64,000 bases of DNA from Candidatus Pacearchaeota archaeon (lineage in GTDB: Archaea > Nanobdellota > Nanobdellia > Pacearchaeales > GW2011-AR1), in contig JAOAJC010000001.1 in NCBI GenBank assembly GCA_026414385.1, positions 2,384 to 66,383 of the forward strand, in the 5' to 3' direction. Below the pieces are notes generated by a model. It was not told the DNA's origin and ran no database searches. It saw nothing but the letters and a program-made list of their open reading frames with translations. Below are positions 13,489-40,123 of this stretch, one piece after another; positions within the stretch are counted from its first letter, which is position 1; each line of letters starts with the position of its first letter. Made by a program: the position numbers and the translations under genes.

Positions 13489-13494
13489 TTTTCT

Positions 13495-13791: not shown

Positions 13792-13793
13792 AT

Positions 13794-16414: not shown

Positions 16415-16418
16415 TTTA

Positions 16419-19407: not shown

Positions 19408-19476
19408 CGACTTTTAAGGTTTGTTGTGATAAAATAGAATAGATAGATTATAAAAGAGAATTATTGTTAATAAAAG

Positions 19477-19490
19477 TGTGAATTTTCACA
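19477..19490. promoter_or_regulatory. Inverted repeat TGTGAA-tt-TTCACA in the divergent pcna/priS promoter region
   Basis: Perfect 6-bp arms with a 2-nt spacer in the 170-nt intergenic region between two divergent replication genes. Confidence 0.3.
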
Positions 19491-19576
19491 ACAAAAATAT
19501 CTAAATTAGAACAGAGTGAAATTTATTATTCTCAAAAAACAATAATTATTATAAGACGGCTAATTAATAAAATGAA

Positions 19577-21112
19577 ATGGGAAAAGAAGAGAGAATAAAG
19601 GCGATAACGCAATTGTATTATTCAAATCCAAAGGTTCTTGAAGCAATGATGATGTTTTCGATTGATAGGGAAGTTATTCCAAGATATTTTGAAATTTTTG
19701 GGAAAAGGCCTGACAAGATTCAATACCCTTCTGACATTCTTGGAATGGTGAAAAAAGGAGCAACCTCTTTTCATGTATCAGAAGAGTTGTGGAATGATGT
19801 TATGGCTTTAAGTTCTGATTTGAAAACGGAAGAGTTAAATGAGTTGAGAAAAGGATGGGATTTATTAATTGATGTAGATTCGCCTTTTCTTGATTTGTCA
19901 AAAATTGCAACAAAGTTATTATTAAATGCTTTAAAAGAACACGGAATTAAAAATTATGGATTAAAATTTTCTGGAAACAAAGGATTCCATATTATTGTTT
20001 CTAACAAGGCTTTTCCAAAAATTTATGATGGGAAGGAAACGAGAAAAATGTTTCCTGACTGGGCAAGAGCTATCTGTGAATATTTAACAAACTACATAAG
20101 AAAGGATTATTATTTGGAGGCAGGCAAAATATTAACAAACAGCGAAATAGAAAAAAACACTGGATTAAAGGAAGAGCCAAACATTATATGTAAAAAGTGT
20201 GGGAAAAAAGCGCGTGTTGGAGATTTGATTAATTTTAAATGTCCGGTGTGTAACATGGAAATATCAAGAAAAGATGTTAAGATAACAAAGAGAAAATTAA
20301 GATGTTTAAACGAAAAATGTGCAGGTTTTTTTGAAATCATAAATGAAAAAAAATATTATTATTGCGAGTATTGTAAAGAGAGGGATAATGAAAAAATGAA
20401 ATTAAATTCTGAAAAAAATCCTGAAAATTTTGAAGAATTAAGAGGAGTTAATGTTGAGAAGATTGCCAAATTAGATTTAGTGCTTGTTTCTCCAAGACAT
20501 TTATTTAGAATGCCATATTCTTTACATGAAAAGACGGCGCTTGCGAGCATTACAATAAAAGAGGAAGATATTGATAAGTTTATGCCGAGAGATGCAAATC
20601 CGTTAAGTGTGAAAATAATAGAGTTTATGCCAAACAATGAAGAAAATGAAGCAAAATATCTTTTGAGCAATGCAATAGAGTGGAAAAAAACGCAAGAAGA
20701 GACAAATGAAAATAGTTGGAAAAAAATTGATGAAAATGAATTTAGAGAGGTTGATTTTAGAAAAATAAAAGAAGAAATGTTTCCAGAATCTATAAAAAAA
20801 TTATTAAGAGGACTAAAAGACGGGAGAAAACGAGGGTTATTTGTATTAATTACTTTTTTGAGGGCGTTGAATTTTCCTGCAGATTATATAAATAAAAGAA
20901 TAAGAGAATGGAATAAATTGAATGACCCACCATTAAAAGAAGGGTATATTAAAGCACAAATTGATTGGCATCTAAAACAAAAGAAGAAAATATTACCACC
21001 CAATTATTCAAATGATGCATTTTATAAAGACATAGGATTAATTAATGAGATTCCTAAATTAAAAAACCCTCTTTCTGAGATTGCAAGAAAATTAAAGGAG
21101 AATAAAAAATAA
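19577..21112 (+). CDS. priS: DNA primase small (catalytic) subunit PriS with tandem Zn-ribbons and a C-terminal PriCT/PriL-CTD-like helical domain (possible fused primase)
   Basis: AEP catalytic motifs (DLLIDVDSPF, KFSGNKGFHIIV), eight Cys in two CxxC...CxxC ribbons, and a C-terminus GRKRGLFVLITFLRALNFPADYINKRIREWNKLNDPPLKEGYI matching the PriCT-1-type pattern. Confidence 0.75.
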   Translation: MGKEERIKAITQLYYSNPKVLEAMMMFSIDREVIPRYFEIFGKRPDKIQYPSDILGMVKKGATSFHVSEELWNDVMALSSDLKTEELNELRKGWDLLIDVDSPFLDLSKIATKLLLNALKEHGIKNYGLKFSGNKGFHIIVSNKAFPKIYDGKETRKMFPDWARAICEYLTNYIRKDYYLEAGKILTNSEIEKNTGLKEEPNIICKKCGKKARVGDLINFKCPVCNMEISRKDVKITKRKLRCLNEKCAGFFEIINEKKYYYCEYCKERDNEKMKLNSEKNPENFEELRGVNVEKIAKLDLVLVSPRHLFRMPYSLHEKTALASITIKEEDIDKFMPRDANPLSVKIIEFMPNNEENEAKYLLSNAIEWKKTQEETNENSWKKIDENEFREVDFRKIKEEMFPESIKKLLRGLKDGRKRGLFVLITFLRALNFPADYINKRIREWNKLNDPPLKEGYIKAQIDWHLKQKKKILPPNYSNDAFYKDIGLINEIPKLKNPLSEIARKLKENKK

Positions 21113-21184: not shown

Positions 21185-23011
21185 ATGCGTAAAAGAGGAT
21201 ATGTTATCAGCATAATAATTGTTTTTGCAATATTAATGGCAAACTTTTCAATTGCTGCAACTAATGAGAGTGAGGTAGTTAGTGTTGATAAGGCTTATAA
21301 ATGCCTAAATGAGCAAATTAAAAAAGTTGGTTCAAATATCGGATTCCAAGACGCGATTTTTGCACAGCTTGCAATTGGTTCAGTAAAAGAAACAAGAGAA
21401 AAAATTGAGAGCGAAAAAAGTTCTACTGAAAATTGTTGGCCAAAAGCAGGATGTAAGATAAAAGAAACAGCACAGGTAATGTTGGCTTATGATAGGGTAG
21501 GAAAGAGCACTTCTGAAATAAGAAAATGGCTAATGTCAAAAAATGCGAGCGCAAGTGAGTTAATATGGTTTTTAGAAATTGATATAACAAACAAAGAAGT
21601 TTCAACATGTAGTTTGAAATACGATGGAGTTCAATATAGCATAAAAGTAAATGAGGAACAAAAAATATCTGGGAATGCTGGAAATTGTTTTGTAATTGCG
21701 AATAATGGTTATATGTTAAGAGTTAGCAATAATTGTATTGGAAAAGAGTTTGAAATATCTTGCGACAAAGATTTTGTAACAGCTATGATTTATCAATCAA
21801 GTACTGGAAAAACATTATTTATTCCGCCAAAAGCGACAGGCGCATCTGGTGGCGGGACAACAAAAGAAAAAGCTATTTCGCAATGTTTTAAGACAACAGG
21901 AGCAGGGTGCGATTATGAAGGGACATTATGGGCAGTCCTTGCTCTTGAAAAATTGGGCGAGGAGACAGATGCATTTTTACCATACCTTTATGCATTTGCT
22001 GATTCTAATAAAAGATATTTTCCATCTGCATTTTTGTACATGATTACAAGTGGTGAGGACCAATATGATTCTATAATTTCTTTGCAAAAACAAGGAAAAT
22101 ATTGGGAAATTGCGGGAAGTCCTTATAATAAATATTATGATAGCGCACTGGCGTTAATGGCATTAAGCAAAACGACATCGCAAGAGGCAGAAAACGCAAA
22201 AGCAAATTTATTAACAATACAAACTCCTGATGGGTGTTGGAATAATAACAATATAAGAGATAGCGGATTTATATTATATGCAGGGTTTACGAAGAGTGTT
22301 GGGAGAGAGGGTGGAGGAGAGGTTCCAAAATGCACTGCACCATTTTCATGTACAGGTTTATTTGATTGTGAAAAAGCTGGTGGGACAAGACAATATAATT
22401 ATGATTGTTCATCAGAGGGGGCTACAAAGATATGCTGTTCAATAAGTGTTGTTGAAGAAACTTGTAGTAAAAAGGGAGGGGTGTTATGTGGTGCAAATGA
22501 ACAATGCACTGGTAGAACAGAACCGTCAAAAGATGGAAGTTGTTGTATGAGTGGTTTTTGTGAAGAAATCCCGGTTGTAGAGGACTTGTGTAGTAAAGCG
22601 GGAGGGACGTGTAAATTTGTGTGTGAGGAAGGGGAAGAAAAAAGTAGCGAAACATGCGCAAACACAGAAGAAGTTTGTTGTGTTAAAAAAGGAACAAGCA
22701 TTTGGTTTTGGATTGTATTACTAATAATATTAATTGCACTAACAATAGTCGGGATTGTTTATAGAAATCAGCTAAGATTATTTTGGTTTAAAATTTGGCC
22801 AAAAATAAAAGAGAAATTCATGGGAAAGAAAGTTGAGAGTAAAGCTATGCCTACAACGCAACCAACAACAAAAGCCCCTATTATGACGCCACAAAGAATG
22901 ATGCCAAGGCCAGCTTATCCAATATCGCAAAGAAGTCCGGGAATAGCAAAATCTTCAAAGGAAAAAGAAATAGAAGAAACATTAAGAAAACTAAAAGAGA
23001 TGGGAAAATAA
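21185..23011 (+). CDS. Secreted membrane-anchored surface protein with a toroid-like domain and three Cys-rich modules
   Basis: N-terminal signal/TM. The N-terminal alpha-repeat domain has a QW-like motif (LLTIQTPDGCWNNN). Three tandem Cys-rich modules (C..GG..C......CC) precede a single TM (IWFWIVLLIILIALTIVGIVY) and a basic/Pro-rich cytoplasmic tail. Confidence 0.6.
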   Translation: MRKRGYVISIIIVFAILMANFSIAATNESEVVSVDKAYKCLNEQIKKVGSNIGFQDAIFAQLAIGSVKETREKIESEKSSTENCWPKAGCKIKETAQVMLAYDRVGKSTSEIRKWLMSKNASASELIWFLEIDITNKEVSTCSLKYDGVQYSIKVNEEQKISGNAGNCFVIANNGYMLRVSNNCIGKEFEISCDKDFVTAMIYQSSTGKTLFIPPKATGASGGGTTKEKAISQCFKTTGAGCDYEGTLWAVLALEKLGEETDAFLPYLYAFADSNKRYFPSAFLYMITSGEDQYDSIISLQKQGKYWEIAGSPYNKYYDSALALMALSKTTSQEAENAKANLLTIQTPDGCWNNNNIRDSGFILYAGFTKSVGREGGGEVPKCTAPFSCTGLFDCEKAGGTRQYNYDCSSEGATKICCSISVVEETCSKKGGVLCGANEQCTGRTEPSKDGSCCMSGFCEEIPVVEDLCSKAGGTCKFVCEEGEEKSSETCANTEEVCCVKKGTSIWFWIVLLIILIALTIVGIVYRNQLRLFWFKIWPKIKEKFMGKKVESKAMPTTQPTTKAPIMTPQRMMPRPAYPISQRSPGIAKSSKEKEIEETLRKLKEMGK

Positions 23012-23063: not shown

Positions 23064-23996
23064 ATGAAAAAGATTGTGCTTTTAGTATTTTTTGTTTTTC
23101 TATCTAGCAGTGTGTTCGCCATAAGCGTTGATATAAAAAATAATTATTTACCAAGGCAAACAGTTATAGCGAAGATATCTGGTGAGGTTTTAGATATTTT
23201 AACAAAAGATAATATTCAATTCAGGAGAGGACATGTTGCGATTCCATTAGAACATGATTTAAAAAAAATAGGGGAAGAGTATTATATTTGGTTTATAACT
23301 CCATTTTTAGAGAACAACTATACGATTATAATAAAAAATATTGCTACAACTGTTGGCGGTTTTGTGAAAAGAATAGATTATGAAAAAAATTTCTCTGTGA
23401 TTGGAAATGCGAGCTATTCAATAAAGCCAGGTTTTGTTTATGCGACAAAAGATTTTGAAATAGCAGTGTTATTATATGAAGATGAAAGAAAGCAAATAAA
23501 AGTTAATTTTTTAGATGAACAGGAGATTGTTTTAAAGCCAGGAAATAATTTATTAAAATTTTCAATAGGAAGCATAAATGAGAGTGGATTTTATAACTTG
23601 ACAATAGGAGAGTATAATGTTCCAGCATACATAATTCCAAACAAGACATTTTATAAAAAGATAAATGAAACAAATGTTACGGCAAAAAACATCATTATTG
23701 AATATGAAATTAAAAATAAGACAAAAATAAACGAGACAAAAAAATTTGAAGTGTATTGTTATGAATATCCTGGGAAAATATGTGGAAATGAAGAAATTTG
23801 TGATGGTGAGACAAGAGAAACAATTGACGGATTTTGTTGTATTGGAACATGTAAGGGAAAAGAAAAGCAAAGTTCTGCATTATGGGGGTATTTATTAATT
23901 ATTGTTGTGGTTGCAATTTTAGGATATATTGGATGGAAATATTATAAAACAAAAGAAGAAAGAAAAAATATATTGCAAAAAAATGTGGCAAAATAA
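23064..23996 (+). CDS. Secreted surface protein with a Cys-rich juxtamembrane module and C-terminal TM anchor
   Basis: Signal peptide MKKIVLLVFFVFLSSSVFA. Module CYEYPGKICGNEEICDGETRETIDGFCCIGTCKG aligns with the modules of the upstream gene, then a TM and a KKTKEERKN tail. Confidence 0.55.
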   Translation: MKKIVLLVFFVFLSSSVFAISVDIKNNYLPRQTVIAKISGEVLDILTKDNIQFRRGHVAIPLEHDLKKIGEEYYIWFITPFLENNYTIIIKNIATTVGGFVKRIDYEKNFSVIGNASYSIKPGFVYATKDFEIAVLLYEDERKQIKVNFLDEQEIVLKPGNNLLKFSIGSINESGFYNLTIGEYNVPAYIIPNKTFYKKINETNVTAKNIIIEYEIKNKTKINETKKFEVYCYEYPGKICGNEEICDGETRETIDGFCCIGTCKGKEKQSSALWGYLLIIVVVAILGYIGWKYYKTKEERKNILQKNVAK

Positions 23997-27525: not shown

Positions 27526-27981
27526 ATGAAAAGAATTGCTAAAAGAGGGTTGTCGCCAATTATTGCGACAACATTGTTAATCTCGCTTGTGGTTATATTA
27601 TCAACAGTAATATTCATATGGGCGAGATCTTATTTTGGAGAGCAAATAACAAAGTTTGGTGGGCCTATTGAAGATTCGTGTAAAAATGTTGATTTCAGCG
27701 TAAGTTTTTCTGGGGGGATTTTAAGCATTGCAAATAATGGAAATGTTCCGATTTATGGAGTTAAGATATATGAAGAAGGAACTTTTGGAACAAATGATTT
27801 GGGAGATATAACAACCAAGGTTATTTTTCCTGGAAAAACAGGAGAGATGAGAGCAAATATGATTAATAATAACAATGTTAATAAAATTGTCGTTGTTCCA
27901 ATTTTGTTAGGAGTTATTGAAGAAAAAGAAGAGACAAAAGCATTTGCTTGTGATATTAATTATGGCAAAAACATAGGATAG
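27526..27981 (+). CDS. Archaeal type IV pilin (PF07790-like N-terminus, class III signal peptide)
   Basis: MKRIAKRGLSPIIATTLLISLVVILSTVIFIW matches the [KR]G-x-SP[IV][IV]AT-x-L[LI] archaeal pilin N-terminus. Confidence 0.75.
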   Translation: MKRIAKRGLSPIIATTLLISLVVILSTVIFIWARSYFGEQITKFGGPIEDSCKNVDFSVSFSGGILSIANNGNVPIYGVKIYEEGTFGTNDLGDITTKVIFPGKTGEMRANMINNNNVNKIVVVPILLGVIEEKEETKAFACDINYGKNIG

Positions 27982-27985
27982 AACA

Positions 27986-28525
27986 ATGGACAAAAAAAGA
28001 GGCATGTCGCCTATTGTTGCCACGGTTTTGATTGTTATGTTAACTATTGCAGGTGTTGCAGCAATTGCGAGCTTTGTTATTCCATTTATTAAAAAAAATT
28101 TGGAAAGTGGAAGTGAGTGTAAAGATTATGAAGATTATTTTGTTTTTGACGAGAGTTATAGATATAATTGCTATACTGGTAGCGGAAACAACACGGTTTA
28201 TGGATTTTCTGTAAAAGCGAAAGCTGATACAAAATCTTATCAAAATTTGAAAGGTTTTGTTATTGTGTTAAGAGCAAATGACGGAACATCAAAGAGCTAT
28301 GAAATAGTAAATGGTAGTCAGGCAGGGGAGATAAAAACCTGTGGAAAAACAAAAGTTGAATTGCCATATTCTGGTGGAATAAAAACATATGGATTTCGGA
28401 AAGAAAACATAGTTTCTGCAATAATCCAAACAAAACTTAAATCAGGAAAAATCTGTAAAGAAGCAGATAAAATAGATTTTTATAGGTGCGAATATTCAAT
28501 TGGAGAGACGCTGAAAACATGCTAG
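27986..28525 (+). CDS. Archaeal type IV pilin (PF07790-like N-terminus)
   Basis: MDKKRGMSPIVATVLIVMLTIAGVAAIASFVIPFI is the same class III signal motif. Confidence 0.75.
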   Translation: MDKKRGMSPIVATVLIVMLTIAGVAAIASFVIPFIKKNLESGSECKDYEDYFVFDESYRYNCYTGSGNNTVYGFSVKAKADTKSYQNLKGFVIVLRANDGTSKSYEIVNGSQAGEIKTCGKTKVELPYSGGIKTYGFRKENIVSAIIQTKLKSGKICKEADKIDFYRCEYSIGETLKTC

Positions 28526-29046
28526 TAAAAAAAGGACAGGTTTGGCTTGAAACGGTTTTATACACTTTAATAGGGCTTGTATTAATTGGAATGGTTCTTG
28601 CGTTTGTTATGCCAAAAATTAATGAGGTAAGAGATAGGGCGCTTGTTGAGCAAGCAATATCAACATTTAGTTTGTTGGACGAGAAAATAAATGAAGTTTT
28701 ACAAAAAGGAGCGGGAAATACGAGGAAAATTGATTTTATAATGAAAAAAGGCGAACTCTATTTTAATATGAGTAATGATGAAATTGTTTTTGTGATAAAA
28801 GAATTATCAAAACCATATTCAGAACCTGGAATAGAAATAGAACGAGGAAATATGAAAATATTGAGTTTGCAAAAAGCAAAAACAAATGAAGTGTATTTAA
28901 AATTGAAATATGACTCAAATCTAACATATTCTGGCAGCGATAACTTAAAAAAATTGACTTCTGCATCAACTCCTTATAAGATTTTTATTGAAAATAAAGG
29001 TGTTGTTGGGGAAAGAGAGTGGATAAACATAGAAGAGGTTTCTTAA
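28519..29046 (+). CDS. Pilin-like protein with class III signal and Glu at +5
   Basis: Start refined to the overlapping ATG (ATGCTAG) giving MLVKKGQVWLETVLYTLIGLVLIGMVLAFV. KKG then QVWLE places a Glu five residues after the predicted cleavage site. Confidence 0.55.
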   Translation: MLVKKGQVWLETVLYTLIGLVLIGMVLAFVMPKINEVRDRALVEQAISTFSLLDEKINEVLQKGAGNTRKIDFIMKKGELYFNMSNDEIVFVIKELSKPYSEPGIEIERGNMKILSLQKAKTNEVYLKLKYDSNLTYSGSDNLKKLTSASTPYKIFIENKGVVGEREWINIEEVS

Positions 29047-29101
29047 TAAAAAAAGATAGGTTTAAATAAATCTTTTCTCTGATTAGTAGTAATAAAAAAA
29101 G

Positions 29102-30625
29102 ATGGTTCAAAAGATAAATTTAAATCCTGCAATTCCAAAGCTTCAAAAATTTGAAGATAAAAAAAAGATAGATGTTAGATATGCCCTTATTTCCCCATAT
29201 GCATTCGCGCATATCTATTGGAGAGAGGACATAGGCGAGGTAGTTTATGAGATTGAAGAACCGGTATTAAATGAAAAGGAAAGAGCTTCTCTTGAAAAAT
29301 TAGAAAATGCAATGCTTGAACTGATAAACATAAATGTGGCTGTTGAAAAAACATTGGAAGCGACAACAGAATATATTGATAAAACAGCAAAATTACTTAT
29401 TGCAGAACTTAATTTAAATATTAGTGATGAAACTTACGAAAAATTGTTTTATTATTTGTTTAGAAACTTTATAGGGCTAAATGAGATTGAACCATTATTG
29501 AGAGATTATTATATTGAAGATATTGAGTGTAACGGGGTGAATACCCCGGTTTATGTCGTGCATAGGGTTTTTAGAAATTTAAGAACAAATTTGACTTTTA
29601 AAGACATGGATAAAGCAGCGAGCTTTGTAGAGAAGCTTGCGCAGAGATGCGGAAGATATATTTCTTATGCACAACCATTGCTCGATGGAACATTGCCTGA
29701 TGGTTCAAGAGTAAATGCAACATATACAAAAGAGATAACTTCAAAAGGGCCAACATTTACAATAAGAAAATTTACGAAAATACCTTGGACTCCAACGCAA
29801 TTAATAGCATTTAATACGATGAGTGCTGAAATGGCTGCGTATTTTTGGATTCTTATCCAATATAAATCGAGTATTGTTGTTGCGGGAGGAACTGGTTCGG
29901 GAAAAACTACTTTCTTAAATGCGATGGCTTTTTTTATTCCGCCAGAGGCAAGAGTAGTCAGCATAGAAGATACGAGAGAAATAAACTTACCAAGAGAAAA
30001 TTGGTTACCTTCTGTTGCGAGGCCATCAATTGGGGTTGGAAAGGTTGGCGAAATTGATTTGTTTGAATTATTAAAAAGTTCATTTAGACAAAATCCAGAT
30101 TATATTATTGTGGGAGAAGTGAGGGGGAAAGAAGCATTTGTGCTTTTTCAAGGAATGGCTTCTGGACATGCTTCTTTGAGTACAATGCACGCAGATTCTG
30201 TTGAAACAATGGTTAGAAGATTAGAAACTCCGCCAATAGAACTCTCTCCAACATTAGTAAATACACTTGATTGTGTTGCTGTTGCTGCGAAAGCATTGAT
30301 AGGGCAGCAAGAGTCAAGAAAAATAAGAGAAGTTTCTGAAATTGTTGAAGTTAATAAAGATGGCAGTGTTATAATAAATACCCCTTTAATTTGGGATCCG
30401 AAAACAGACAAATTTCTTTTTAGAAAAGAGAGCAAAGTATTTGAAAAAATAGCAGGAAGATTTGGAATGACTATTGATAATTTGTACAAAGAATTCACGA
30501 TAAGAACAAAATTACTTTACGAATTAGCAAGAAGAAAAGTGTTTGGATTTGAAGAGATACAAAGAATAATAAACGATTATTATAAAAATCCTGCAGAAGT
30601 GTTAAGTAGATATGGAATAGGTTAA
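29102..30625 (+). CDS. Type IV pilus/secretion assembly ATPase (FlaI/TadA/PilB family)
   Basis: Walker A VAGGTGSGKTTFLNAM, Asp box, Walker B DYIIVGEVRGKEA, and His box GHASLSTMHADS. Confidence 0.85.
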   Translation: MVQKINLNPAIPKLQKFEDKKKIDVRYALISPYAFAHIYWREDIGEVVYEIEEPVLNEKERASLEKLENAMLELININVAVEKTLEATTEYIDKTAKLLIAELNLNISDETYEKLFYYLFRNFIGLNEIEPLLRDYYIEDIECNGVNTPVYVVHRVFRNLRTNLTFKDMDKAASFVEKLAQRCGRYISYAQPLLDGTLPDGSRVNATYTKEITSKGPTFTIRKFTKIPWTPTQLIAFNTMSAEMAAYFWILIQYKSSIVVAGGTGSGKTTFLNAMAFFIPPEARVVSIEDTREINLPRENWLPSVARPSIGVGKVGEIDLFELLKSSFRQNPDYIIVGEVRGKEAFVLFQGMASGHASLSTMHADSVETMVRRLETPPIELSPTLVNTLDCVAVAAKALIGQQESRKIREVSEIVEVNKDGSVIINTPLIWDPKTDKFLFRKESKVFEKIAGRFGMTIDNLYKEFTIRTKLLYELARRKVFGFEEIQRIINDYYKNPAEVLSRYGIG

Positions 30626-30687
30626 AATGTGAAAATTTCTTAAGCCATATTGATTAAATTTAATAAGATTGAAAAATAAATATAATT

Positions 30688-30849
30688 ATGAAAAAAGAGG
30701 ACATTAATTTAATTGCCAGAGTATTGACGGACATGAAAGATTCTTTAACTGAAATTGAAAATGCGTTGAAAAATAAAGACATTGGAAAATTAAATGAAGC
30801 AAAATCAAAGATTTTGAGGTTGCAAATAGAGATAGATAAAAGAATATGA
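30688..30849 (+). CDS. Small coiled-coil ORF (53 aa) between the ATPase and the membrane platform gene
   Basis: MKKEDINLIARVLTDMKDSLTEIENALKNKDIGKLNEAKSKILRLQIEIDKRI, with a stop codon overlapping the next ATG (ATGA). Below the ORF-track size cutoff. Confidence 0.3.
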   Translation: MKKEDINLIARVLTDMKDSLTEIENALKNKDIGKLNEAKSKILRLQIEIDKRI

Positions 30850-32138
30850 TAACCCAAATAGAACAACTAAAAAAGAACATAGATGGTGAAATAAAGATAT
30901 TAGGAGAGATTTCTAATTTATTTGTTAGGTTTGAAAATAGCACTGGAGAAGAAAGAAGAATAATTCTTAGTACAATTGATTCACTATCTAAAAATATGAA
31001 GATGATAAACCGAGCGATTCCAAAAATTCTTGAGAGTATTGTCATTGAGGAAAGAAAAGAAAAGAAAGAAGACAAACTTGAGAGAATAGAAGAAGGAATT
31101 GCGGAGGGGGTTGTTTTGAAACTAGAGGACAAGGAAAAATTCTTAACAGAATTAAACATAAATGAAGAGTTTATTAAAAAATTAAAGAAAAAGAAAAGTG
31201 AGGGTGAAGAAAAATATGAAGAATTCAAAAAAGCAAGAGGTTATTTGAAACTTGCAAATAGGTTTTTTTTAGAAAGTTCTATTAGTATGGTAAAGAAAGG
31301 ATATTTCAGTGATTTATACAATGATTTAAAAAAATCAAATTTAAACATTCTTCTTGAAGGATATGTTGCGATGATGCTTTTAACAAGCGTTATTGCGTTT
31401 TGTTTGGGGGTTTTTTTGTTTGTTTTTTTTATGTTATTTGATATTAGTTTTTCGATGCCTTTAATAAGTGCCTATAAAGGCGGGTTTTTTCCGAGATTTT
31501 CAAAAATAATATGGCTACCTTTAATTATGCCATTGATAACTTTTATAGCACTCTATATTTACCCATCAACAGAGGCAAAATCAATTGAAAAAAATATAAA
31601 CGAAGAATTACCATTTGCTGTGGTGCATATGAGTTCTATATCAGGTTCTGGGATAGCGCCTGTGGAAATTTTCAAAATTATTGGGAATAGCAAAGATTAC
31701 CCATATCTAAAAAGAGAGTTAAGAAAAGTGTTAAACCAAATCAACATATATGGATATGATTTAGTTAGCGCATTAAATAATGTCTCAAAAAGTACACCAA
31801 GTGCAAAATTAAGTGCCTTGATGGCTGGATTATCAACTACAATAAATACTGGTGGAAATTTGAGCGATTTTTTTCAGAAAAGAGCTGATTCATTGCTATT
31901 AGAGTACAAGTTAGATAAGGAAAAATTCATAAAAGTTGCAGAGACATTTATGGACATTTACATAAGCGTCGTAATTGCTGCACCAATGATAATTATGTTG
32001 TTGTTAATAATGATATCAATATCGGGATTACAAACAGGATTCTCGCCATATCAATTAACATTCATCACAATAGCAGGAGTAGCTTTTGTTAATATTATAT
32101 TTTTAGCATTTTTACAAACAAAGAAAGGAATTGCATAA
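30846..32138 (+). CDS. Pilus assembly membrane protein, FlaJ/TadC-like, N-terminal half (T2SS-F domain)
   Basis: Cytoplasmic coiled-coil N-terminus, then TM helices and a T2SSF-like domain (ELPFAVVHMSSISGSGIAPVEIFKIIG...LSALMAGLSTTINTGGNLSDFF). Confidence 0.7.
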   Translation: MITQIEQLKKNIDGEIKILGEISNLFVRFENSTGEERRIILSTIDSLSKNMKMINRAIPKILESIVIEERKEKKEDKLERIEEGIAEGVVLKLEDKEKFLTELNINEEFIKKLKKKKSEGEEKYEEFKKARGYLKLANRFFLESSISMVKKGYFSDLYNDLKKSNLNILLEGYVAMMLLTSVIAFCLGVFLFVFFMLFDISFSMPLISAYKGGFFPRFSKIIWLPLIMPLITFIALYIYPSTEAKSIEKNINEELPFAVVHMSSISGSGIAPVEIFKIIGNSKDYPYLKRELRKVLNQINIYGYDLVSALNNVSKSTPSAKLSALMAGLSTTINTGGNLSDFFQKRADSLLLEYKLDKEKFIKVAETFMDIYISVVIAAPMIIMLLLIMISISGLQTGFSPYQLTFITIAGVAFVNIIFLAFLQTKKGIA

Positions 32139-32986
32139 TGAAAATAAATAGAACAAAATTGCTTGGAATTATAGCAGGAATAATTGTGATAGTTGTTGAT
32201 TTAATATTTTTCTTTGGTGAAAAAGCATTTATGTTTATCATCGGCATAGCAATTGTTGTAGCATTAACACCTTTTATAATTGAAATAGTAAGGGAGGGAA
32301 AAAGGGCAGAGGATATCGAAGAGAAATTTCTTGAATTTTCAAGAAATCTTGCAGAAAGCGTAATGACTGGAACTCCGATAAGTAAAAGTATTGTGAATAT
32401 ATCAAAAAAGAATTATGGTGCTTTGACTCCCCACGTGCAGAAATTATCAAATCAAATTCAATTAGGAATACCATTAAGTAAGGCATTGCAAATATTTGCA
32501 AATGATATTGATAATGTTGTTATAACTAGAGCAATAGCACTAATAAGTGAGGCTGAAAAAGCTGGTGGAGAAATTGATTATATTCTCGATTCTGTTGCTA
32601 AATCAATTGCAGAAACAGAAAAACTAAAAAAAGAAAGAAAATCTGCAATATTTAATCTTGTAATGCAAGGATATATTATATTCTTTATATTTATAGGAAT
32701 AATGCTCGTAATGGAGTTTAAAATATTGCCACTTGCGACAGGAATTGGTGGGGGGGGCATTTCTGGAGTAGAAATTGGTGGAATGATACCTGTTGGAGGA
32801 CAAACAATGAATCCTGAAGAGATATCAAATTTATTCTTATACTTGCTTTTAACACAAGGATTTTTTGCAGGATTGACTATTGGAAAATTGAGCGAGGGTT
32901 CTATAAAAGCTGGGATTAAACACTCGTTTATACTTGTTATTGCAGCATTTTTAATATCAACGGGAGTAAGAGCTTTGTTTGTTTAA
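32138..32986 (+). CDS. Pilus assembly membrane protein, FlaJ/TadC-like, C-terminal half (second T2SS-F domain)
   Basis: TAATG overlap with the upstream half. TM, then T2SSF-like IEEKFLEFSRNLAESVMTGTPISKSI...LISEAEKAGGEIDYILDSVA, then TMs. Confidence 0.65.
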   Translation: MKINRTKLLGIIAGIIVIVVDLIFFFGEKAFMFIIGIAIVVALTPFIIEIVREGKRAEDIEEKFLEFSRNLAESVMTGTPISKSIVNISKKNYGALTPHVQKLSNQIQLGIPLSKALQIFANDIDNVVITRAIALISEAEKAGGEIDYILDSVAKSIAETEKLKKERKSAIFNLVMQGYIIFFIFIGIMLVMEFKILPLATGIGGGGISGVEIGGMIPVGGQTMNPEEISNLFLYLLLTQGFFAGLTIGKLSEGSIKAGIKHSFILVIAAFLISTGVRALFV

Positions 32987-33046
32987 AAACATAATTGAAC
33001 TTTGTTATAAAGCAAATTTAATAAACTAAAAAAAATTAAGAAAGAT

Positions 33047-33745
33047 ATGAAAAAGAGAGGGGCGAGCAATATAGAGTTTATACTTGCATTTGTATTGTTT
33101 GTCGGATTTGTAGCAACGATTTTTTATTTTTTTAATCCTATTAGAAATGTTAATTATATGGAATCATCTTTAAACTATGTTATTGGAGCGATAGAGAAAA
33201 ATGTAACTAGTGAGATTGATGAAGTTGGGATATTAATTAAAGGTTCAAGTTCGGGGGGCAATATTGCAAAGGTTAAGATAAAAGACATTTCAAATGATAA
33301 AAAAGTTGATGCAAGAGATTATTATGGATTTCGATTTGATGCAAAAAGAAATGGTGAAGAAGTTTATATTGATTTAAAAAATAGAGGAACAAATAACAAT
33401 TTTATAATATTTAGGTTTAATGAGGAATTTAATGAGGAAACAATTTCTAGTGGCCAAGAAAGAGAATATACAATATCAACAAAAGATTCAAGAAAAATTG
33501 TTTCTGAAAAAAAAATAAAGCAATTAAGCGAGAGATACGCAAATAATTATTTAAAATTGAAAGAAGAACTAAAAATTCCTGCGAACATTGATTTTTCATT
33601 TTCGTTAGAATTGCAAGACAGAAAAATAGAAGTAACAAAAGATATTCCTGCAAGAGCAGAAGTATTTGCAAAGGGAAAATTAATTGAAGTATTAAAAGAA
33701 AATGAGGTGACTGAAACCGGATATTTAACAATAAGAATATGGTAA
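33047..33745 (+). CDS. Pilin-like/minor pilin protein (class III signal, Glu+5)
   Basis: MKKRGASNIEFILAFVLFVGFVATIFYFF. If cleaved after RG, Glu is at +5. Confidence 0.5.
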   Translation: MKKRGASNIEFILAFVLFVGFVATIFYFFNPIRNVNYMESSLNYVIGAIEKNVTSEIDEVGILIKGSSSGGNIAKVKIKDISNDKKVDARDYYGFRFDAKRNGEEVYIDLKNRGTNNNFIIFRFNEEFNEETISSGQEREYTISTKDSRKIVSEKKIKQLSERYANNYLKLKEELKIPANIDFSFSLELQDRKIEVTKDIPARAEVFAKGKLIEVLKENEVTETGYLTIRIW

Positions 33746-34167
33746 ATAAAAAAGGAATAGTTAGAATAATTGAAGCCAGTGTTGCAATATTAATTATATT
33801 GTCTGTAGTATTAGTGGTTTCTGAAAGAAAAAAATTGCAAATTGAGAGCGATTTAAGTGAGAGAATAACTCCATTGTTAGAAGAAATAGCAAAAAATGGG
33901 AGTATGAGAGAAGCGATAATAAGAGATAATGAAACGAATAATGATGCTGAAAATCTTGTTATGGATTTTTTGAAACAAAGAATAAAAGAGACATTTATAG
34001 GTTATAATGTAACAATATGTAACTATACTCTTGTTTGTGGATTAAGAACATATCCAACAGAAGCAAAAGGCAACATTTATTCTGGAGAGAGAGTGATTAG
34101 CACAACATTAGAAAATAGACAGTTCAATCCAAAAAAAATAAAGATTTTCTTATGGATTAAAAGATAA
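33739..34167 (+). CDS. Pilin-like protein (class III signal)
   Basis: MVNKKGIVRIIEASVAILIILSVVLVV. Confidence 0.45.
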   Translation: MVNKKGIVRIIEASVAILIILSVVLVVSERKKLQIESDLSERITPLLEEIAKNGSMREAIIRDNETNNDAENLVMDFLKQRIKETFIGYNVTICNYTLVCGLRTYPTEAKGNIYSGERVISTTLENRQFNPKKIKIFLWIKR

Positions 34168-34299
34168 AACTGGTTTGCAATAGATTAAATTAAAAAATTT
34201 TGCATAAAATAGAATAACTTAAATCTTATGTTTGGGCGCGCATTTGTATAGATTAAGGAGTACAGGTAATTTTATAAACTCCATTTCTTTAAAAAAGAT

Positions 34300-35907
34300 A
34301 TGAAAAGAGAGGTTTTTTTTATCGGATTTGTAATATTTATAATAACGTTTGCAAGCGCTATTTGCAATGATGAGAATCAGGTTATTTTAAGATTATACAG
34401 AGAGAATAACTCTCATGCGGCAATATGGTCAAATACAACTTATAGCGAAAAAGTGTGTTTTAATGATATTTTTGGACTAAATTATTCAGGAACAAATCCA
34501 CACGATTGTAATAGTGATAATAGTAATGTTGTTTTAAAGCTAAATCAAGAGTTTAATGCGCATGCTGCACTGCCAACTCTTCCAGATAGTGTTGTTGGAT
34601 TCCCAATAAAAGTTTGTTATAAGGGAGTAAAAAAATGTGAATTGTTTGATAATGATAATTGCAGAGCAAATCAGAAAGCAATTCTTTATTTTAATAGCGT
34701 GATTAACTCTCATCTTTCAAAAAATTATGGAGGGGATTTTACAAAAACATTGTGTTGTTATAGATATGATGCGATAATTCATCCGGAATGGTGTTTTGCA
34801 AATAACATTAGCAGTTGTGATAGATATAATAGTCAAACTAATTGCACTCAAGATTTATGTAATGCCTCATTAGTAGATCCAAATTGTCCTCTCGGAGCAA
34901 CTTGTAATTGTGCTTGGGAAAATAATCAATGCAAATTAAAAGTAATAACCACTCCTCCAGCCCCGCCATTTTGTTCTACTATAAATTCATGTGGAGATTA
35001 TAAAGAACAAAGTAAATGTTCTGAAGATATGTGTAACGTTTCTGGGACAGGATATAAGTGTGAGTGGAATATCGCAGATGGAAAGTGTGAGAAAGTTCAA
35101 ATCCCTGGATGGTGTTCTGTAATTAGTAGTTGTAGTAATTATACAACGCAAGCAAATTGTAGCGCGAATCCTTGTTTGGAGGGAAAAGCATGTTATTGGA
35201 ATAATAGTGTTTGTAAAGATTATAAAGCAGATGATAAATGTAGAATAAATAATATAACGAAATGTGCAAATTATGTGGACAAAGATCCGTGTAATGATGA
35301 TGCTTGTAATGTATCTATAATTGGTTGTTCTCCTAATCAGTTATGTTGGTGTGCTTGGGAAAATAATAAGTGTGAGAAAAGAGAAAAAGATAGAGAAGAA
35401 AAAAGAGATTTTTGCGATTATATAGATTCTTGTAGTGATTATGATACTTCAAATAAGTGCGAAAATGATAATTGTGGAATTGCAGATTATGATGAGAATT
35501 GTCCTATTGGTAGAGATTGTTCGTGTAAGTGGATAAGTAATGTTGGTTGTGGAGTATCATTTGAGAGTGGGGGAGGGAGTGGTGGCAGGATGCCTCCTGG
35601 TTCAGGTGGGTGGGGCAATCCAGGTTGCAAATATAATTGTACAATTAATACAAAACAAGGAGAGTGTAAAGAAGGATTTATGGATGTGATAGTAAATGCA
35701 GAAACTAGGATAATACAAGGATGTACAGGAGCAACAGGAAGTCCACTAGATTGTCAAACTAAAACAATAAAGGGAGTTCCGTGTGCATTAGCAGAAACAG
35801 AATTGCCTTTTTTTGAATTTTGGCAAATCCTCATTTCTATTGTGGGGATTGTATTTGTCTATTTGTTTTTATTAAAAAATTGGGAAAAAATAAAAAAGCA
35901 TATATAA
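34300..35907 (+). CDS. Secreted Cys-rich repeat protein (five ~40-aa C-x-x-Y/x-x-x-x-C-x-x-D-x-C-N-x-S...C-x-W-x-N-x-x-C modules) with C-terminal TM anchor
   Basis: Signal peptide. Repeats CDRYNSQTNCTQDLCNAS...CNCAWENNQCKLK, CGDYKEQSKCSEDMCNVS...CEWNIADGKCEKV, CSNYTTQANCSANPC...CYWNNSVCKDY, CANYVDKDPCNDDACNVS...CWCAWENNKCEKR, CSDYDTSNKCENDNCG...CSCKWISNVGCG. Many N-x-S/T sequons. Gly-rich linker and TM at the end. Confidence 0.6.
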   Translation: MKREVFFIGFVIFIITFASAICNDENQVILRLYRENNSHAAIWSNTTYSEKVCFNDIFGLNYSGTNPHDCNSDNSNVVLKLNQEFNAHAALPTLPDSVVGFPIKVCYKGVKKCELFDNDNCRANQKAILYFNSVINSHLSKNYGGDFTKTLCCYRYDAIIHPEWCFANNISSCDRYNSQTNCTQDLCNASLVDPNCPLGATCNCAWENNQCKLKVITTPPAPPFCSTINSCGDYKEQSKCSEDMCNVSGTGYKCEWNIADGKCEKVQIPGWCSVISSCSNYTTQANCSANPCLEGKACYWNNSVCKDYKADDKCRINNITKCANYVDKDPCNDDACNVSIIGCSPNQLCWCAWENNKCEKREKDREEKRDFCDYIDSCSDYDTSNKCENDNCGIADYDENCPIGRDCSCKWISNVGCGVSFESGGGSGGRMPPGSGGWGNPGCKYNCTINTKQGECKEGFMDVIVNAETRIIQGCTGATGSPLDCQTKTIKGVPCALAETELPFFEFWQILISIVGIVFVYLFLLKNWEKIKKHI

Positions 35908-35949: not shown

Positions 35950-38649
35950 ATGAATAAAAAAAGAGTGAGCGTTGTTTTTTGTTTTATATTCTTATTAGTT
36001 ATTATTAGTTTTGTTTCTGCATCTTTTAGTTTTAAAAATGAAAATTTGCAAAGAACATATGTTGGTGGAGAGATGATTAAGGGATTTATAAACATAAGTT
36101 TCTCAAATGAGAATGCACATAGTTTATTAACTAGTAATTTTAATGGAACAATAACATTAATTGAATTATTGAAAAAAAATAACTTTATCGAAAATAATGA
36201 TTACATATGTTCTAGAAAAAAATGCGAAATTGATTATAAAGCAGACGAAGAAATAAACAGTTTAAATTTAAATGATGATGATAGTAAAATAATTGGCTTT
36301 AAATTAACTGGAAATAATGTAGAAATAAGTTCGTTAAAATTATCTTTGGCAACAAATGCAGATGCTTCGTGCGAGAGAGAAATTTTGATAGATGTTCTTG
36401 ATAGAAACGAGAGTTTTATACAGAGCACAAAAAAAACAAAGGATATTTGTGAAGAAGAGTATTTTGGTTGTTTTGACGAAAACGAAGATACAAGTTATGT
36501 AATTATATCAGAATCAGGATATTGTGAAAAGATTGAATTGCCGCCAGCACCTGCATATATGATAGGAGCAAAAGTAAAAAATGGAACAGCGACAGCAAAA
36601 TTAACAATGAAATTATATGATGGTTCATGGAATGAGTTGGGTGAATGTGAATTACCAAAAAACTCACAAAATATTGAAAAACTGACATGCCAAGTTAATT
36701 ATTCAAATAAAGAAAAGAAAGAATTTATGATTTGCATTTCTTCTTCATCAGAAGACGCAGAATATCAGATAAGGAGTGAAGAATCTAGAGAAACATGCGG
36801 AACGGATAATATGGGTAGCTCTTATAATATTGATTTTGAGATATTTGCAAAAAAAGTTAAATTTGCTCCGATAGGGATATTATCAATAAATGAGACGACT
36901 TTTTCAGAACAAAATGATGGAAATAACTTAAATGATTATATAGATAGTTATATAGAAGAAAAATATGAAAGAAATTGTTCAAATGGGTGCATAATTCCGT
37001 TTAGGATTTATGGGAATAGTCAGACAATTACAAAAGAAAGTGCAACATTAAAATATAGAGAAGGTAGTGGTAGAGTGTTGCGTACGACAGGTGCTATTTA
37101 TTCTATTGAAAAAGAAGATGCAAAAATAACTACAAAAAGAGCATTAAACATAAATATTGAAAAGGCAGGTTTTTTCATACCTCTCTTATCAACAGCAAAA
37201 CAATTATTAATTTATTTGGACAATAAGATGATATTGCCAAAAGCTATTCCGATAAATGTTACAAAAGGATTTGATTTTGATATTTCACCAAAAGAAGTTA
37301 GCATTGGTATAGTAACTTATTTTAATATAATAACAACTGAGAATATAACTTCGTCCAAGTGGAATTTTGGAGATGGAACAATTGAAACATTTGATGGAAA
37401 AGGAGCCGTACATAAATATGTTGGATTACCAATTGGAACAAATGAGTATAGTGTTGAAGTAATCGTAACAAGAAAAGATGGAGTAATATCAAAAAAAATA
37501 TTTAAAATAGGGATTGAGCCATTGTCAGAAAGCGCAAAAACCTTGCTTAATATATCAAATTCAAAAATAACAAAATTAAACTCAAAAATAAACTCTTATC
37601 CTGAGTGGATTGGAGATTTAATAAAAACAAAATTGAATTTTGATAATATGAATTCTGTTATTACGAAAGGAAAAATTGCTATTTTGAATGCTTCAACTAA
37701 TGATGATTATATGGCAATAATAAATCAAATGTTAGGATTAGAAATTCCCGATGAAATAATTTCAAAAGAGATTGGAAAGGATATTAATCCTGTTGTTGGA
37801 TTTGAAAAAATAGAAACGTCTGCCATTGAACAGATATCAAATAAAAAGGTAAGCTCAGATAAAAAAGCAGAACTAAAAGAAGCGATTATTAAATGGATGG
37901 CGAGAAATGCAAACATGAAATTAGAGTATGAAAAGATATTTCAGATAGATGAAAATGGGGAAAAAATTTTACTTAGTAAATTGGTGATAGATGTTAATCC
38001 AAAAGAAAAAGCTTATTTGATAATAAATTATCCACTCAACAGCATAAAATTCAATGGAAATTATTCTGAAAGTGCAATTGGTTCTTTTAGTTATATCCCT
38101 ATAAAAGAACCAAAAATAATAGAATTTGCAATTATGGATAATGTTAATGTTGGGGATTTAGGTATTTATCTATCGCCAACAATTGATAAAGTTTATGTAC
38201 AAGCAGAAGTTGTTAAGGAAGAATTTAATTGGAGTAGATTTATAACGTGGATGATTGTTTTGTTCGTAATTGCTTTTATAATATACATTGTAATGCAAGA
38301 ATGGTACAAAAGATATTACGAAAAATCATTATTTAAAAATAAAGATGACTTGTATAATTTAATTAATTTTATTTATAATGCAAAAAAAGCAGGAATGAAA
38401 GATGAAGAATTAAGAAATAAGTTGAGTGATGCAAAATGGAAAGGCGAACAAATAACATATGCTCTAAGAAAAGCAGAAGGAAAAAGAACTGGGATGTGGG
38501 AAATACCAATATTTAAATATTGGGAACAAATGGAAATAAAAGCAGAGATTGCAAAAAGAGTGGGTGAGCAAAAAACAAGCGCGCAACAACAGTCAAATTC
38601 AAAAATGCATAATATAAAAACTGGGACACAACAAAGTTTATTAAAATAA
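35950..38649 (+). CDS. Large secreted surface protein with a PKD domain and C-terminal TM anchor
   Basis: Signal peptide. PKD motif WNFGDGTIETFDGKGAVHKYVGLPIGTNEYSVEVIVTRKDG. TM FITWMIVLFVIAFIIYIVMQEWY. 899 aa. Confidence 0.6.
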   Translation: MNKKRVSVVFCFIFLLVIISFVSASFSFKNENLQRTYVGGEMIKGFINISFSNENAHSLLTSNFNGTITLIELLKKNNFIENNDYICSRKKCEIDYKADEEINSLNLNDDDSKIIGFKLTGNNVEISSLKLSLATNADASCEREILIDVLDRNESFIQSTKKTKDICEEEYFGCFDENEDTSYVIISESGYCEKIELPPAPAYMIGAKVKNGTATAKLTMKLYDGSWNELGECELPKNSQNIEKLTCQVNYSNKEKKEFMICISSSSEDAEYQIRSEESRETCGTDNMGSSYNIDFEIFAKKVKFAPIGILSINETTFSEQNDGNNLNDYIDSYIEEKYERNCSNGCIIPFRIYGNSQTITKESATLKYREGSGRVLRTTGAIYSIEKEDAKITTKRALNINIEKAGFFIPLLSTAKQLLIYLDNKMILPKAIPINVTKGFDFDISPKEVSIGIVTYFNIITTENITSSKWNFGDGTIETFDGKGAVHKYVGLPIGTNEYSVEVIVTRKDGVISKKIFKIGIEPLSESAKTLLNISNSKITKLNSKINSYPEWIGDLIKTKLNFDNMNSVITKGKIAILNASTNDDYMAIINQMLGLEIPDEIISKEIGKDINPVVGFEKIETSAIEQISNKKVSSDKKAELKEAIIKWMARNANMKLEYEKIFQIDENGEKILLSKLVIDVNPKEKAYLIINYPLNSIKFNGNYSESAIGSFSYIPIKEPKIIEFAIMDNVNVGDLGIYLSPTIDKVYVQAEVVKEEFNWSRFITWMIVLFVIAFIIYIVMQEWYKRYYEKSLFKNKDDLYNLINFIYNAKKAGMKDEELRNKLSDAKWKGEQITYALRKAEGKRTGMWEIPIFKYWEQMEIKAEIAKRVGEQKTSAQQQSNSKMHNIKTGTQQSLLK

Positions 38650-38668: not shown

Positions 38669-39307
38669 ATGTTAAAGATATTAAAAAGTTTTGCGAAGAG
38701 AATTCTGAAAAGCATTTTTAAAAAAAGAGATGAAATAAAAATTGGATTTTATGGGCCACCAAATGCTGGTAAGACATCTATTGCAAACAAAATATGTAAA
38801 GATTGGACTGGAGAGGAAATAGGGAAAGTTAGTAAAATACCTCATGAGACAAGAAAAGTGCAATTCAAAGAGAAAGTTGAAATTGAACACAAAGGGAAAA
38901 AACTAACATTTAAAATAGCAGATACTCCAGGAATTGCCACAAGAATTGATTATGAAGATTTTTTAAAACATGGGTTAAATAAAGGGATTGCAAAAAAAAG
39001 AGCAAAAGAAGCTACGCAGGGAGTTATAGAATCAATAAAATGGCTTGATGATATGGATGCTGTTATTGCTGTTTTAGACGCAAGTGAGAATCCATATTCG
39101 CAAGTAAATGTTACAATATTAGGAAACATTGCTGCGAGAAACATTCCTGTTCTTGTTGTAGCAAATAAGATTGATTTAAAAAAAGCAGACATTAATCAAA
39201 TAAAAGCAGCTTTTCCAGATTATGAAGTTATTGGAATAAGCGCAAAAGAGGGAACAAATTTTGACGAATTTTATGAATCGTTATTTAAATTAGCAAAGCA
39301 GATTTAA
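38669..39307 (+). CDS. Small GTP-binding protein (P-loop GTPase)
   Basis: G1 GPPNAGKTS, G3 DTPG, G4 ANKID, G5 SAK. Confidence 0.75.
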   Translation: MLKILKSFAKRILKSIFKKRDEIKIGFYGPPNAGKTSIANKICKDWTGEEIGKVSKIPHETRKVQFKEKVEIEHKGKKLTFKIADTPGIATRIDYEDFLKHGLNKGIAKKRAKEATQGVIESIKWLDDMDAVIAVLDASENPYSQVNVTILGNIAARNIPVLVVANKIDLKKADINQIKAAFPDYEVIGISAKEGTNFDEFYESLFKLAKQI

Positions 39308-39313
39308 GATAAA

Positions 39314-39706
39314 ATGGTAAAAGAAAAAAAAATAAAAGGATTGAGTTTGCAACTAATTCCATTTTCAGAGCTAAGCGGGCTTGGAATATCAGAAAGAGTA
39401 AAAAAAGTGTTGTCTTTGGTATTAGATAATAAAATAGCCATAATCCAGGGGAGATTAAGGGCTGAAGAAGAAGCAAGATTAATTGAGGATACAATGGTTT
39501 TAGTGGATAGAGTAAAAAATTTTAAAGGTATAGAGTTGGCTGTGATTGAACCTGACTTAAAAGATGCTGGAATTTTTATGAAAGCTAAGCAGGCAATTGC
39601 AAATTCTCTAACTGGCAATAACAACGCCCTAACAGTCGTCGGTCCAGCTTCAATAATAAAAGAAATAAAAAGAAATCCAAAGAAGATTGAACTGATGCTA
39701 AAATAA
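39314..39706 (+). CDS. Archaeal conserved protein, DUF2073-like
   Basis: 130 aa. It is the conserved downstream partner of this GTPase in archaeal genomes (recalled from memory, not searched). Confidence 0.4.
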   Translation: MVKEKKIKGLSLQLIPFSELSGLGISERVKKVLSLVLDNKIAIIQGRLRAEEEARLIEDTMVLVDRVKNFKGIELAVIEPDLKDAGIFMKAKQAIANSLTGNNNALTVVGPASIIKEIKRNPKKIELMLK

Positions 39707-39727
39707 ATAAAACTTTATTAATCCATA

Positions 39728-40123
39728 TTGCTGATTTTTTGTATGCCATATAGGTGCGTACATTGTTCGGTAGTTTATGAAGATAGTGCAGAAGAACTAA
39801 TGCGTGGTTGCTCTAATTGTAAAAGCAAGTTCTTTTTTTATATAAAACCAGAGAAATTAAAGGAAATTGCAGAAAATGAGAGAGAAGAGAATTTTACAAA
39901 AGAAGAAAAAGAAAAAATGGAAAAAGATATAAGAGAGATTGTTGGGATAACTAATGAAGAAAAGCCAGTATTTTTAGATTTTGAAAGTATAAAAGTAATA
40001 AGACATGGAAAATATCTTATTGACTTACCAAAATTATTTGATTTAAAAAAACCAAGAGTTTATAGTTTAGAAGATGGAAAGTATATTATTGATTTAAACG
40101 TTCTAATGAAACCATCAAAATAA
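39728..40123 (+). CDS. Zn-ribbon-containing protein (DUF2072-like)
   Basis: CVHCSVVYED...CSNCKSKFFF ribbon at the N-terminus followed by an acidic coiled region. Third member of the conserved triad. Confidence 0.4.
   Translation: MLIFCMPYRCVHCSVVYEDSAEELMRGCSNCKSKFFFYIKPEKLKEIAENEREENFTKEEKEKMEKDIREIVGITNEEKPVFLDFESIKVIRHGKYLIDLPKLFDLKKPRVYSLEDGKYIIDLNVLMKPSK

Follow-up and report, generated by a model that had tools for sequence, protein, structure and literature searches.

Archaeal type IV pilus (T4P) loci often hold, alongside the pilus genes, a gene for a C-terminally transmembrane (TM)-anchored, Cys-containing 'S-layer-like' protein and another for a large signal-peptide protein (PMC4858521), and the 'S-layer-like' families of such loci, of which arCOG05471 is an example (Makarova et al. 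2016), come from Thermoproteales and euryarchaea (PMC4858521). We describe here a protein of this general kind from a 64,000-nt stretch of the genome of a Candidatus Pacearchaeota archaeon (the whole stretch is hereafter called the window; contig JAOAJC010000001.1 of assembly GCA_026414385.1), where it is encoded by the open reading frame (ORF) at 34300–35907 on the + strand. The product is 535 aa long, is rich in Cys (50 residues, 9.3%) and is identical to N3D20_00270, a 'hypothetical protein' of the NCBI metagenome-assembled genome of Candidatus Pacearchaeota archaeon. With its signal peptide, single C-terminal TM helix, conserved Cys residues and place in a T4P locus, the window protein fits the 'S-layer-like' class, which is a descriptive class and does not denote homology, and its gene stands beside those for an ATPase, TadC, pilins and a large signal-peptide protein, as in the loci described. 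Its family, unlike the arCOG05471-type proteins, appears to be restricted to DPANN archaea, has a head domain of its own, marked by N-x-H motifs, and is assigned to no arCOG, Pfam or NCBIfam entry; the likeness drawn here is one of description. The kind of protein is thus familiar, since TM-anchored, Cys-containing pilus-locus proteins have been described (PMC4858521), and the novelty lies in the domains, in how they fold and in their spread across DPANN archaea.

Our favoured reading, to which we give a probability of roughly 0.55, is that the product is a membrane-anchored surface protein composed of head, stalk and anchor and having a role in attachment or recognition; surface display and adhesion are what we infer from its sequence. 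The preliminary description of this region had taken a five-fold Cys-rich repeat to be the essence of the protein, but comparison across the family recasts the repeats as an amplified module, the likely role of which is that of a spacer, and it is the N-terminal head, unmentioned in that description, that defines the family.

An exhaustive HMMER scan covering 1.84 billion cluster representatives returned 564 protein clusters of the family at E <= 1e-3 (362 at E <= 1e-10). A word-indexed protein search gave 3 proteins of the family (two relatives), and no match when the alignment of the Cys module served as query; for Cys-rich, fast-evolving proteins such indexed-search negatives should not be read as rarity. 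All of the best 150 matches carry the N-terminal head, and 94 of these 150 have in addition a C-terminal module (C-module), in which one Cys unit is followed by a Cys/beta domain, the motif L-P-F-F-G-x-W-Q, a TM helix and a basic tail. In the window protein the match to the family HMM covers aa 18–154 (head) and that to the C-module aa 377–519, and all six N and H residues of the head motifs are present. The commonest member is of ~310 aa and has nothing beyond a signal peptide, the N-x-H head, a single Cys module, the C-domain and a TM helix; in longer members variable stretches, such as PKD in P0003, are inserted in the middle. Lengths range from 300 to 1700 aa, and tandem paralogs occur. 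Every cluster that is named or located comes from DPANN archaea, the names being all 'hypothetical', Nanoarchaeota or Pacearchaeota, and each of the 14 loci in species-representative genomes is likewise DPANN (Pacearchaeota, Woesearchaeota, Nanoarchaeota and one labelled Aenigmarchaeum); these loci were found with a narrower alignment, and the sample is biased towards close relatives. A viral origin was rejected, no relatives being present in INPHARED phages or IMG/VR, and literature searches for a description of the head family found nothing specific. Between the window and the locus of the closest relative (L001), the head protein is 38% identical (46% for the head domain alone) versus 60–94% for neighbouring genes, a rate of divergence that would be typical of interaction proteins.

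The head (aa 21–160, ~140 aa; 34360–34779, + strand, as for all parts of this gene, the pilus genes and p899 below) contains a ~48-aa repeat three times over, with the pattern h-h-L-x-L-x4-N-[AS]-H ... V-C-[FY] and with N-x-H motifs at N37/H39 (34408–34416), N86/H88 (34555–34563) and N136/H138 (34705–34713). In 135 representative head domains of less than 50% mutual identity, the Asn and the His of the first and third motifs are each kept in 133, as is the Asn of the second, the His of which is kept in all 135. The six residues are accordingly 99–100% conserved versus 88–99% for the Cys residues; with N and H more conserved than Cys, either a functional site or a very special structural network is indicated. 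Judged by sequence, the head is the most conserved and family-defining part of the protein and is likely the part that binds a ligand. In a full-length AlphaFold2 model built on an 89-row alignment, the head is predicted at pLDDT 94–98, the fifth Cys repeat at 90–96, the C-domain at 84–93, the first four repeats at 54–90 and the linkers below 50; modelled alone, the head reaches pLDDT 95.6 and pTM 0.89. Foldseek against the PDB gave no structural match at E <= 0.001. The best match of the head was the C-terminal Cys/His-rich domain of PCSK9 (PDB 4k8r, 7anq), which aligns over 103–104 of 142 head residues at 3.7–3.8 Å and is like the head in containing Cys and His and in having three repeats, and as modelled the head would seem to be a fold without structural relative.

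The five-fold repeat is itself real. Repeats R1 (aa 164–212; 34789–34935), R2 (aa 224–264; 34969–35091), R3 (aa 271–306; 35110–35217), R4 (aa 313–359; 35236–35376) and R5 (aa 371–418; 35410–35553), spanning 34789–35553, were compared by pairwise Smith–Waterman alignment and score 2.8–12.7 SD above composition-preserving shuffles, Cys included, with 8 of the 10 pair scores never equalled in 1000 shuffles; Cys richness alone therefore does not account for their register, and a chance or low-complexity origin is excluded by the shuffling. Invariant positions across the five-repeat alignment are C, I, C, Y, C, C, C, W and C, and C-x-W-x(4-6)-C fits 5/5 repeats. The count of about six Cys per repeat given in the preliminary description holds for the short form (R2 and R3, 6 Cys) and not for the long form (R1, R4 and R5, 8 Cys), which has an inserted C-P-x-G-x-x-C loop; the motif C-x-x-Y-x5-C-x-x-D-x-C-N-x-S is exact in R1, R2 and R4 and partial in R3 and R5. 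Each unit is predicted to form two short helices and, after them, a beta-hairpin with the C-x-W. R1 is matched by the repeat HMM at a domain E of 2e-23 (pLDDT 54–78), R2 is modelled at pLDDT 81–90, and between R4 and R5 lies a charged Lys/Glu/Arg linker, KREKDREEKRD (35377–35409; pLDDT <50 at aa 364–369), encoded by low-complexity A/G-rich DNA.

The Cys unit occurs in 89 of the best 150 matches and is single in 86 of those 89; among these 150, more than one copy is found only in the window protein (five), its closest relative P0002 (four) and P0069 (three), an iterated profile recovering fewer (four of the window's five and two of the four of P0002). In the ordinary ~310-aa relatives the one Cys module corresponds to R5, with which it aligns. 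Read from these sequences, the five-fold repeat is a lineage-specific expansion of a normally single module that lies beside the membrane-proximal domain. In P0002, encoded at locus L001, two copies of the repeat are 96% identical in DNA over 85 nt, and amplification is therefore ongoing in the lineage; the two stretches concerned (L001 10625–10709 and 10754–10838) have the look of a recent tandem duplication of a ~129–138-nt unit. Within the window no long direct or tandem DNA repeats were found among the copies, which are old at the DNA level, and a recent DNA-level tandem duplication there was rejected.

As the preliminary description had it, N-x-S/T sequons are abundant and most repeats carry one: 13 were observed versus 6.6 ± 2.3 in shuffles (P ~0.007, about twice expectation), 4/5 repeats have at least one, and C-x-W-N-x-S/T recurs in 14 of 43 Cys modules, so that the stalk is probably N-glycosylated. 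The number of Cys is even in 39 of the 43 modules, and optional Cys residues come and go in pairs (phi 0.95 and 0.76), which is a signature of disulfide partners and suggests that the modules are disulfide-bonded. Downstream of R5 a Gly-rich flexible hinge, FESGGGSGGRMPPGSGGWGNPG (aa 421–442; 35560–35625), is modelled as disordered (pLDDT <50 at aa 426–437); it is 82% identical in the closest relative and is missing from most ~310-aa family members. It is followed by a membrane-proximal Cys/beta domain of ~55 aa (aa 443–495; 35626–35784) with six Cys and three long modelled strands (444–453, 460–473 and 488–494; pLDDT 84–93), which is part of the C-module of the 94 relatives mentioned above. 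The protein had been described as ending in the Gly-rich linker and a TM anchor; both exist, with this domain intervening.

The first proposal of a cell-surface protein is supported by a Sec-type signal with A-S-A, by the C-terminal TM anchor and by an ectodomain predicted to be rich in disulfides. Hydropathy identifies two hydrophobic segments, an N-terminal one (aa 3–22) and the C-terminal TM segment (~aa 504–526). The signal peptide (aa 1–20; 34300–34359), assigned by sequence rules, has the form MKRE, hydrophobic core and A-S-A, then I-C; the N-terminus reads MKREVFFIGFVIFIITFASA followed by IC, with A-S-A as a Sec cleavage site of the A-x-A type, and the consensus G-x-A-S-A-x-C is kept across family members. 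There is no [KR][KR]G prepilin motif in this N-terminus, and neither Pilin_N nor arch_flag_Nterm (Pfam, NCBIfam) matches the protein, unlike the neighbouring product of 27986–28525. At the other end, a juxtamembrane E-L-P-F-F-E-F-W-Q leads into the TM helix (together aa 501–526; 35800–35877, from hydropathy; modelled helix 507–534) and a short basic cytoplasmic tail, NWEKIKKHI, with the stop codon (35878–35907). Across the family, L-P-F-F-G-x-W-Q, TM helix and basic tail vary hardly at all, the tail being present in relatives also, and the motif is found in no other ORF of the window. By eye, this order of motif, TM helix and basic tail resembles a sorting signal. A known CTERM signal of archaeosortase or exosortase substrates (PGF-CTERM, PEF-CTERM) was rejected as no model matched, an NCBIfam scan of 10 family C-termini (E <= 10) giving one faint Loki-CTERM match (E 0.82, 10 bits, cutoff 19.9). 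Within the helix the spacing Phe...Tyr is conserved; it resembles the usual belt of aromatic residues in other TM anchors of the window and is given no weight here.

The position of the gene directly after pilus genes was correctly noted, and the order is kept in several related genomes. The upstream T4P gene set (27526–34167), assigned from Pfam, NCBIfam and the N-termini, comprises three pilins (27526–27981, 27986–28525 and 28486–29046, the second matching arch_flag_Nterm of NCBIfam at 24.8 bits, cutoff 20), a T2SSE ATPase (29102–30625; Pfam 2.9e-31), two T2SSF/TadC proteins (30846–32138 and 32138–32986; Pfam T2SSF 1e-17) and two pilin-like ORFs (33047–33745 and 33739–34167). The last two have no family match; they start KRG then ASNIEF and KKG then IVRIIEA, each with a hydrophobic stretch after it, are kept after TadC in related loci and are probably minor pilins. 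All five pilin-like neighbours begin in class III-like manner with [KR][KR]G and a hydrophobic stretch. Pilus gene order is kept in L001, L005, L007, L012 and L013. In the window and in L001, L005, L007 and L013 the head gene comes straight after the pilus genes. Of these, L001, L005 and L013 keep the whole series TrxR, pilins, ATPase, two TadC, p232, p142, head protein, p899, GTPase, OapB and OapC, and L007 keeps its left half, from TrxR to the head gene, at which its contig ends; in L012 the pilus part is kept with different flanks, and a small gene, of 140 aa, separates the head gene from the pilin-like gene that ends the set. Proximity to the pilus locus is a conserved trait, though not one of all genomes.

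A steadier neighbour than the pilus genes is p899 (35950–38649), an 899-aa protein with signal peptide, large ectodomain, weak PKD match, TM segment near the C-terminus and ~130-aa cytoplasmic tail, a homologue of which lies 3' of the head-domain gene in 10 of the 15 distinct loci compared. Head and anchor, fused in the window, are separate adjacent genes in L008 (9929–12308), L010 (9929–12246), L012 (9902–12347) and L014 (9947–12283), the head protein there being of ~450–530 aa without TM and the anchor protein, of ~290–330 aa, consisting of Cys unit, C-domain and TM helix. This pattern of fusion and fission argues that the C-module tethers the head.

Considering these data together, we suggest that a Sec-exported type I membrane protein would be displayed on the surface of the Pacearchaeota (DPANN) cell. 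Its head (aa 21–160), a predicted compact beta domain of three repeats with a near-invariant N-x-H in each, would likely bind a ligand, and its anchor would be formed by a disulfide-knotted Cys unit, the second Cys/beta domain and the TM helix preceded by L-P-F-F-x-x-W-Q. Tandem amplification of the Cys unit to five copies, with linkers that are Pro-rich, charged or Gly-rich, may then have given a longer, probably N-glycosylated and hinged stalk, on which the head would stand at a greater distance from the membrane. Acting alongside the T4P and p899, the protein would most likely serve to attach the cell to a partner cell or surface, or to recognise one. Attachment is favoured over a structural coat because of fast divergence, variable middles, paralogy and change in repeat number between close relatives, and also because of the association with pilus and surface genes and the episymbiotic lifestyle, which is one inferred for DPANN archaea. 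A bolder extension, which we offer tentatively and at well below even odds, is that the head is a new fold, a beta domain of three-fold pseudo-symmetry, with a single site formed by three His/Asn pairs, and is the recognition module of a DPANN-specific adhesin system that would act on hosts together with the pili, on a stalk that could be amplified quickly to tune its reach.

Several observations weigh against the attachment reading. R1–R4 are modelled only at pLDDT 54–90, and both the geometry of the N-x-H residues and the disulfide pairing are deduced rather than seen in the model; no oligosaccharyltransferase gene lies in the window, and glycosylation is argued from the sequon count alone. 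Association with the pilus genes is interrupted by housekeeping genes in L009 and L014, and in L008, L010, L016 and L017 there is no pilus gene within 10 kb upstream of the head gene; moreover, the linkage is partly confounded because the housekeeping flanks (TrxR on one side, GTPase–OapB–OapC on the other) are conserved as well. Finally, a TATA-box-like TTTTATAAA (34270–34278), read from the sequence and centred ~26 nt 5' of the ATG, could act as the gene's own promoter and yield a leaderless mRNA, although the evidence is weak since such strings are common in an AT-rich genome of 30% GC. TATA-like strings stand at leaderless-transcript distance 5' of both the head-protein gene and p899, which suggests that the gene may be transcribed alone, apart from the pilus genes.

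The most serious rival, which we nevertheless regard as unlikely, is that the protein forms or tethers a structural, S-layer-like envelope coat, the thickness of which would be set by repeat number. Sulfolobales S-layers are two-component structures, of SlaA and SlaB, and the existence of separable head and anchor genes in the family recalls such an arrangement; the ~310-aa core form is, besides, widespread and uniform. Further in its favour, the protein matches the 'S-layer-like' proteins (PMC4858521) in its C-terminal TM anchor, its high Cys content, its excess of sequons and its place in a pilus locus. Against this, highly variable middles, lengths of 300–1700 aa, tandem paralogs and an orthologue that evolves far faster than its neighbours suit interaction proteins better than a lattice subunit, and no lattice-forming domain was recognised.

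A second alternative, and one we consider decidedly improbable, keeps the display of the head and changes its function: with three invariant His and Asn on a pseudo-three-fold domain, the head might be a receptor for a metal or small ligand that serves in uptake or sensing, and not an adhesin.

Whether the repeat belongs to a described family bears on a third explanation. In keeping with the first reading, which did not place the repeat in a known family, no Pfam or NCBIfam model scores above its cutoff on the 535-aa protein, on 15 relatives or on the family C-termini, and sequence searches of the PDB with the whole protein, or with profiles of the head and of the Cys module, gave no match, hits to arenavirus GP1 and alpha-lactalbumin (E ~0.01–0.2) being dismissed as Cys-pattern noise. 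A relation to EGF, TNFR or GCC families was looked for with the Pfam models; these and the furin-like models did not match the protein or the 43 isolated modules at all, and the PSI domain (PF01437) reached at best 11.1 bits (E 0.26–0.54, in 2 of the 43 modules; cutoff 23.1). The resemblance to the EGF-like, TNFR and PSI modules of eukaryotic type I receptors is one of working, namely a tandem array that sets a ligand-binding head apart from its TM anchor, with small units (36–49 aa, 3–4 disulfides), a conserved aromatic residue beside a Cys (C-x-W) and N-glycan sequons. The near miss is Paramecium_SA (PF01508, cutoff 21.2), which scores 16.0 bits (E 0.017) on the whole protein and 17.1 bits on the five-repeat region; R3 is the sole copy that passes by itself (22.3 bits). 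From this could follow that the Cys repeat is a true distant homologue of the Paramecium antigen and the protein a variable surface-coat antigen, a coat that evades viruses or grazers, and we find this very doubtful. The idea draws on the match of 10 of 43 modules to the profile (short-form copies, examined singly, align to its positions 23–58), on the shared ~40–60-aa periodic Cys repeat of a surface protein, and on rapid change of copy number and fast sequence divergence; however, 33 of the 43 modules have no match, the whole protein remains below cutoff, and short Cys-rich patterns are prone to convergence. In addition, the family-defining head bears no relation to ciliate antigens, the C-P-x-G loop and a D-P motif of the long form fall outside the profile, and the host is archaeal. 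Ciliate antigens are GPI-anchored, whereas the archaeal protein has a TM anchor. The resemblance may reflect either distant homology or convergence of Cys spacing.

The least tenable explanation is the suggestion made at the outset that the protein is a pilus-tip or minor-pilin adhesin incorporated at the tip of the T4P encoded upstream, which we hold to be most improbable in spite of the adjoining pilus genes and their conserved order in several genomes, since a protein with a Sec/signal peptidase I-type start (MKRE, hydrophobic core, ASA) in place of the class III signal of all its pilin-like neighbours, and with a C-terminal TM anchor and basic tail of its own, is not a pilin-type subunit, and since homologues lie away from pilus genes in several genomes.

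In other respects the window, at 27–34% GC, is plain chromosomal DNA from a DPANN archaeon, as its archaeal housekeeping genes (SecY, PCNA, primase, FttA, Rad50/Mre11, ArgRS, Lhr, OapB/OapC and the adjoining GTPase) show. Two other ORFs of the window, 21185–23011 and 23064–23996 (both +), encode secreted proteins without a Pfam match in which a TM helix comes after a C-terminal region that is rich in Cys but of another kind, and the first of them also has a Pro/Lys-rich cytoplasmic tail. Within ~16000–21000, gene strand and GC skew change sign near 18–20 kb, between PCNA (18661–19407, −) and primase (19577–21112, +), and the GTPase–OapB–OapC (origin-associated protein) trio is found at 38669–40123; the region may lie near a replication origin. 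Elsewhere, genes that by eye resemble the tRNA ligase RtcB repeatedly flank the head or anchor genes where pilus genes do not (L012, and upstream of the head gene in L008, L010, L014 and L016); in L012, where the genes concerned lie at 9283–9705 and 12497–13873, an archease-like gene is present as well.

Finally, the five-fold repeat is the less interesting part of this protein, and it is the head domain and the size of its family that carry the main interest. At least 564 clusters, found only in DPANN as far as sampled and without database annotation, belong to this family, which may provide annotators with two or three new domain models. Pacearchaeota, Woesearchaeota and other DPANN archaea are abundant and uncultured and are thought to be attached to other cells, and the molecules of such contacts are almost unknown. 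Given that a six-residue invariant motif points to a predicted binding site, while stalk and anchor vary between close relatives, the ~140-aa head would be a concrete, conserved and expressible domain with which to approach the binding of hosts or ligands in these organisms.

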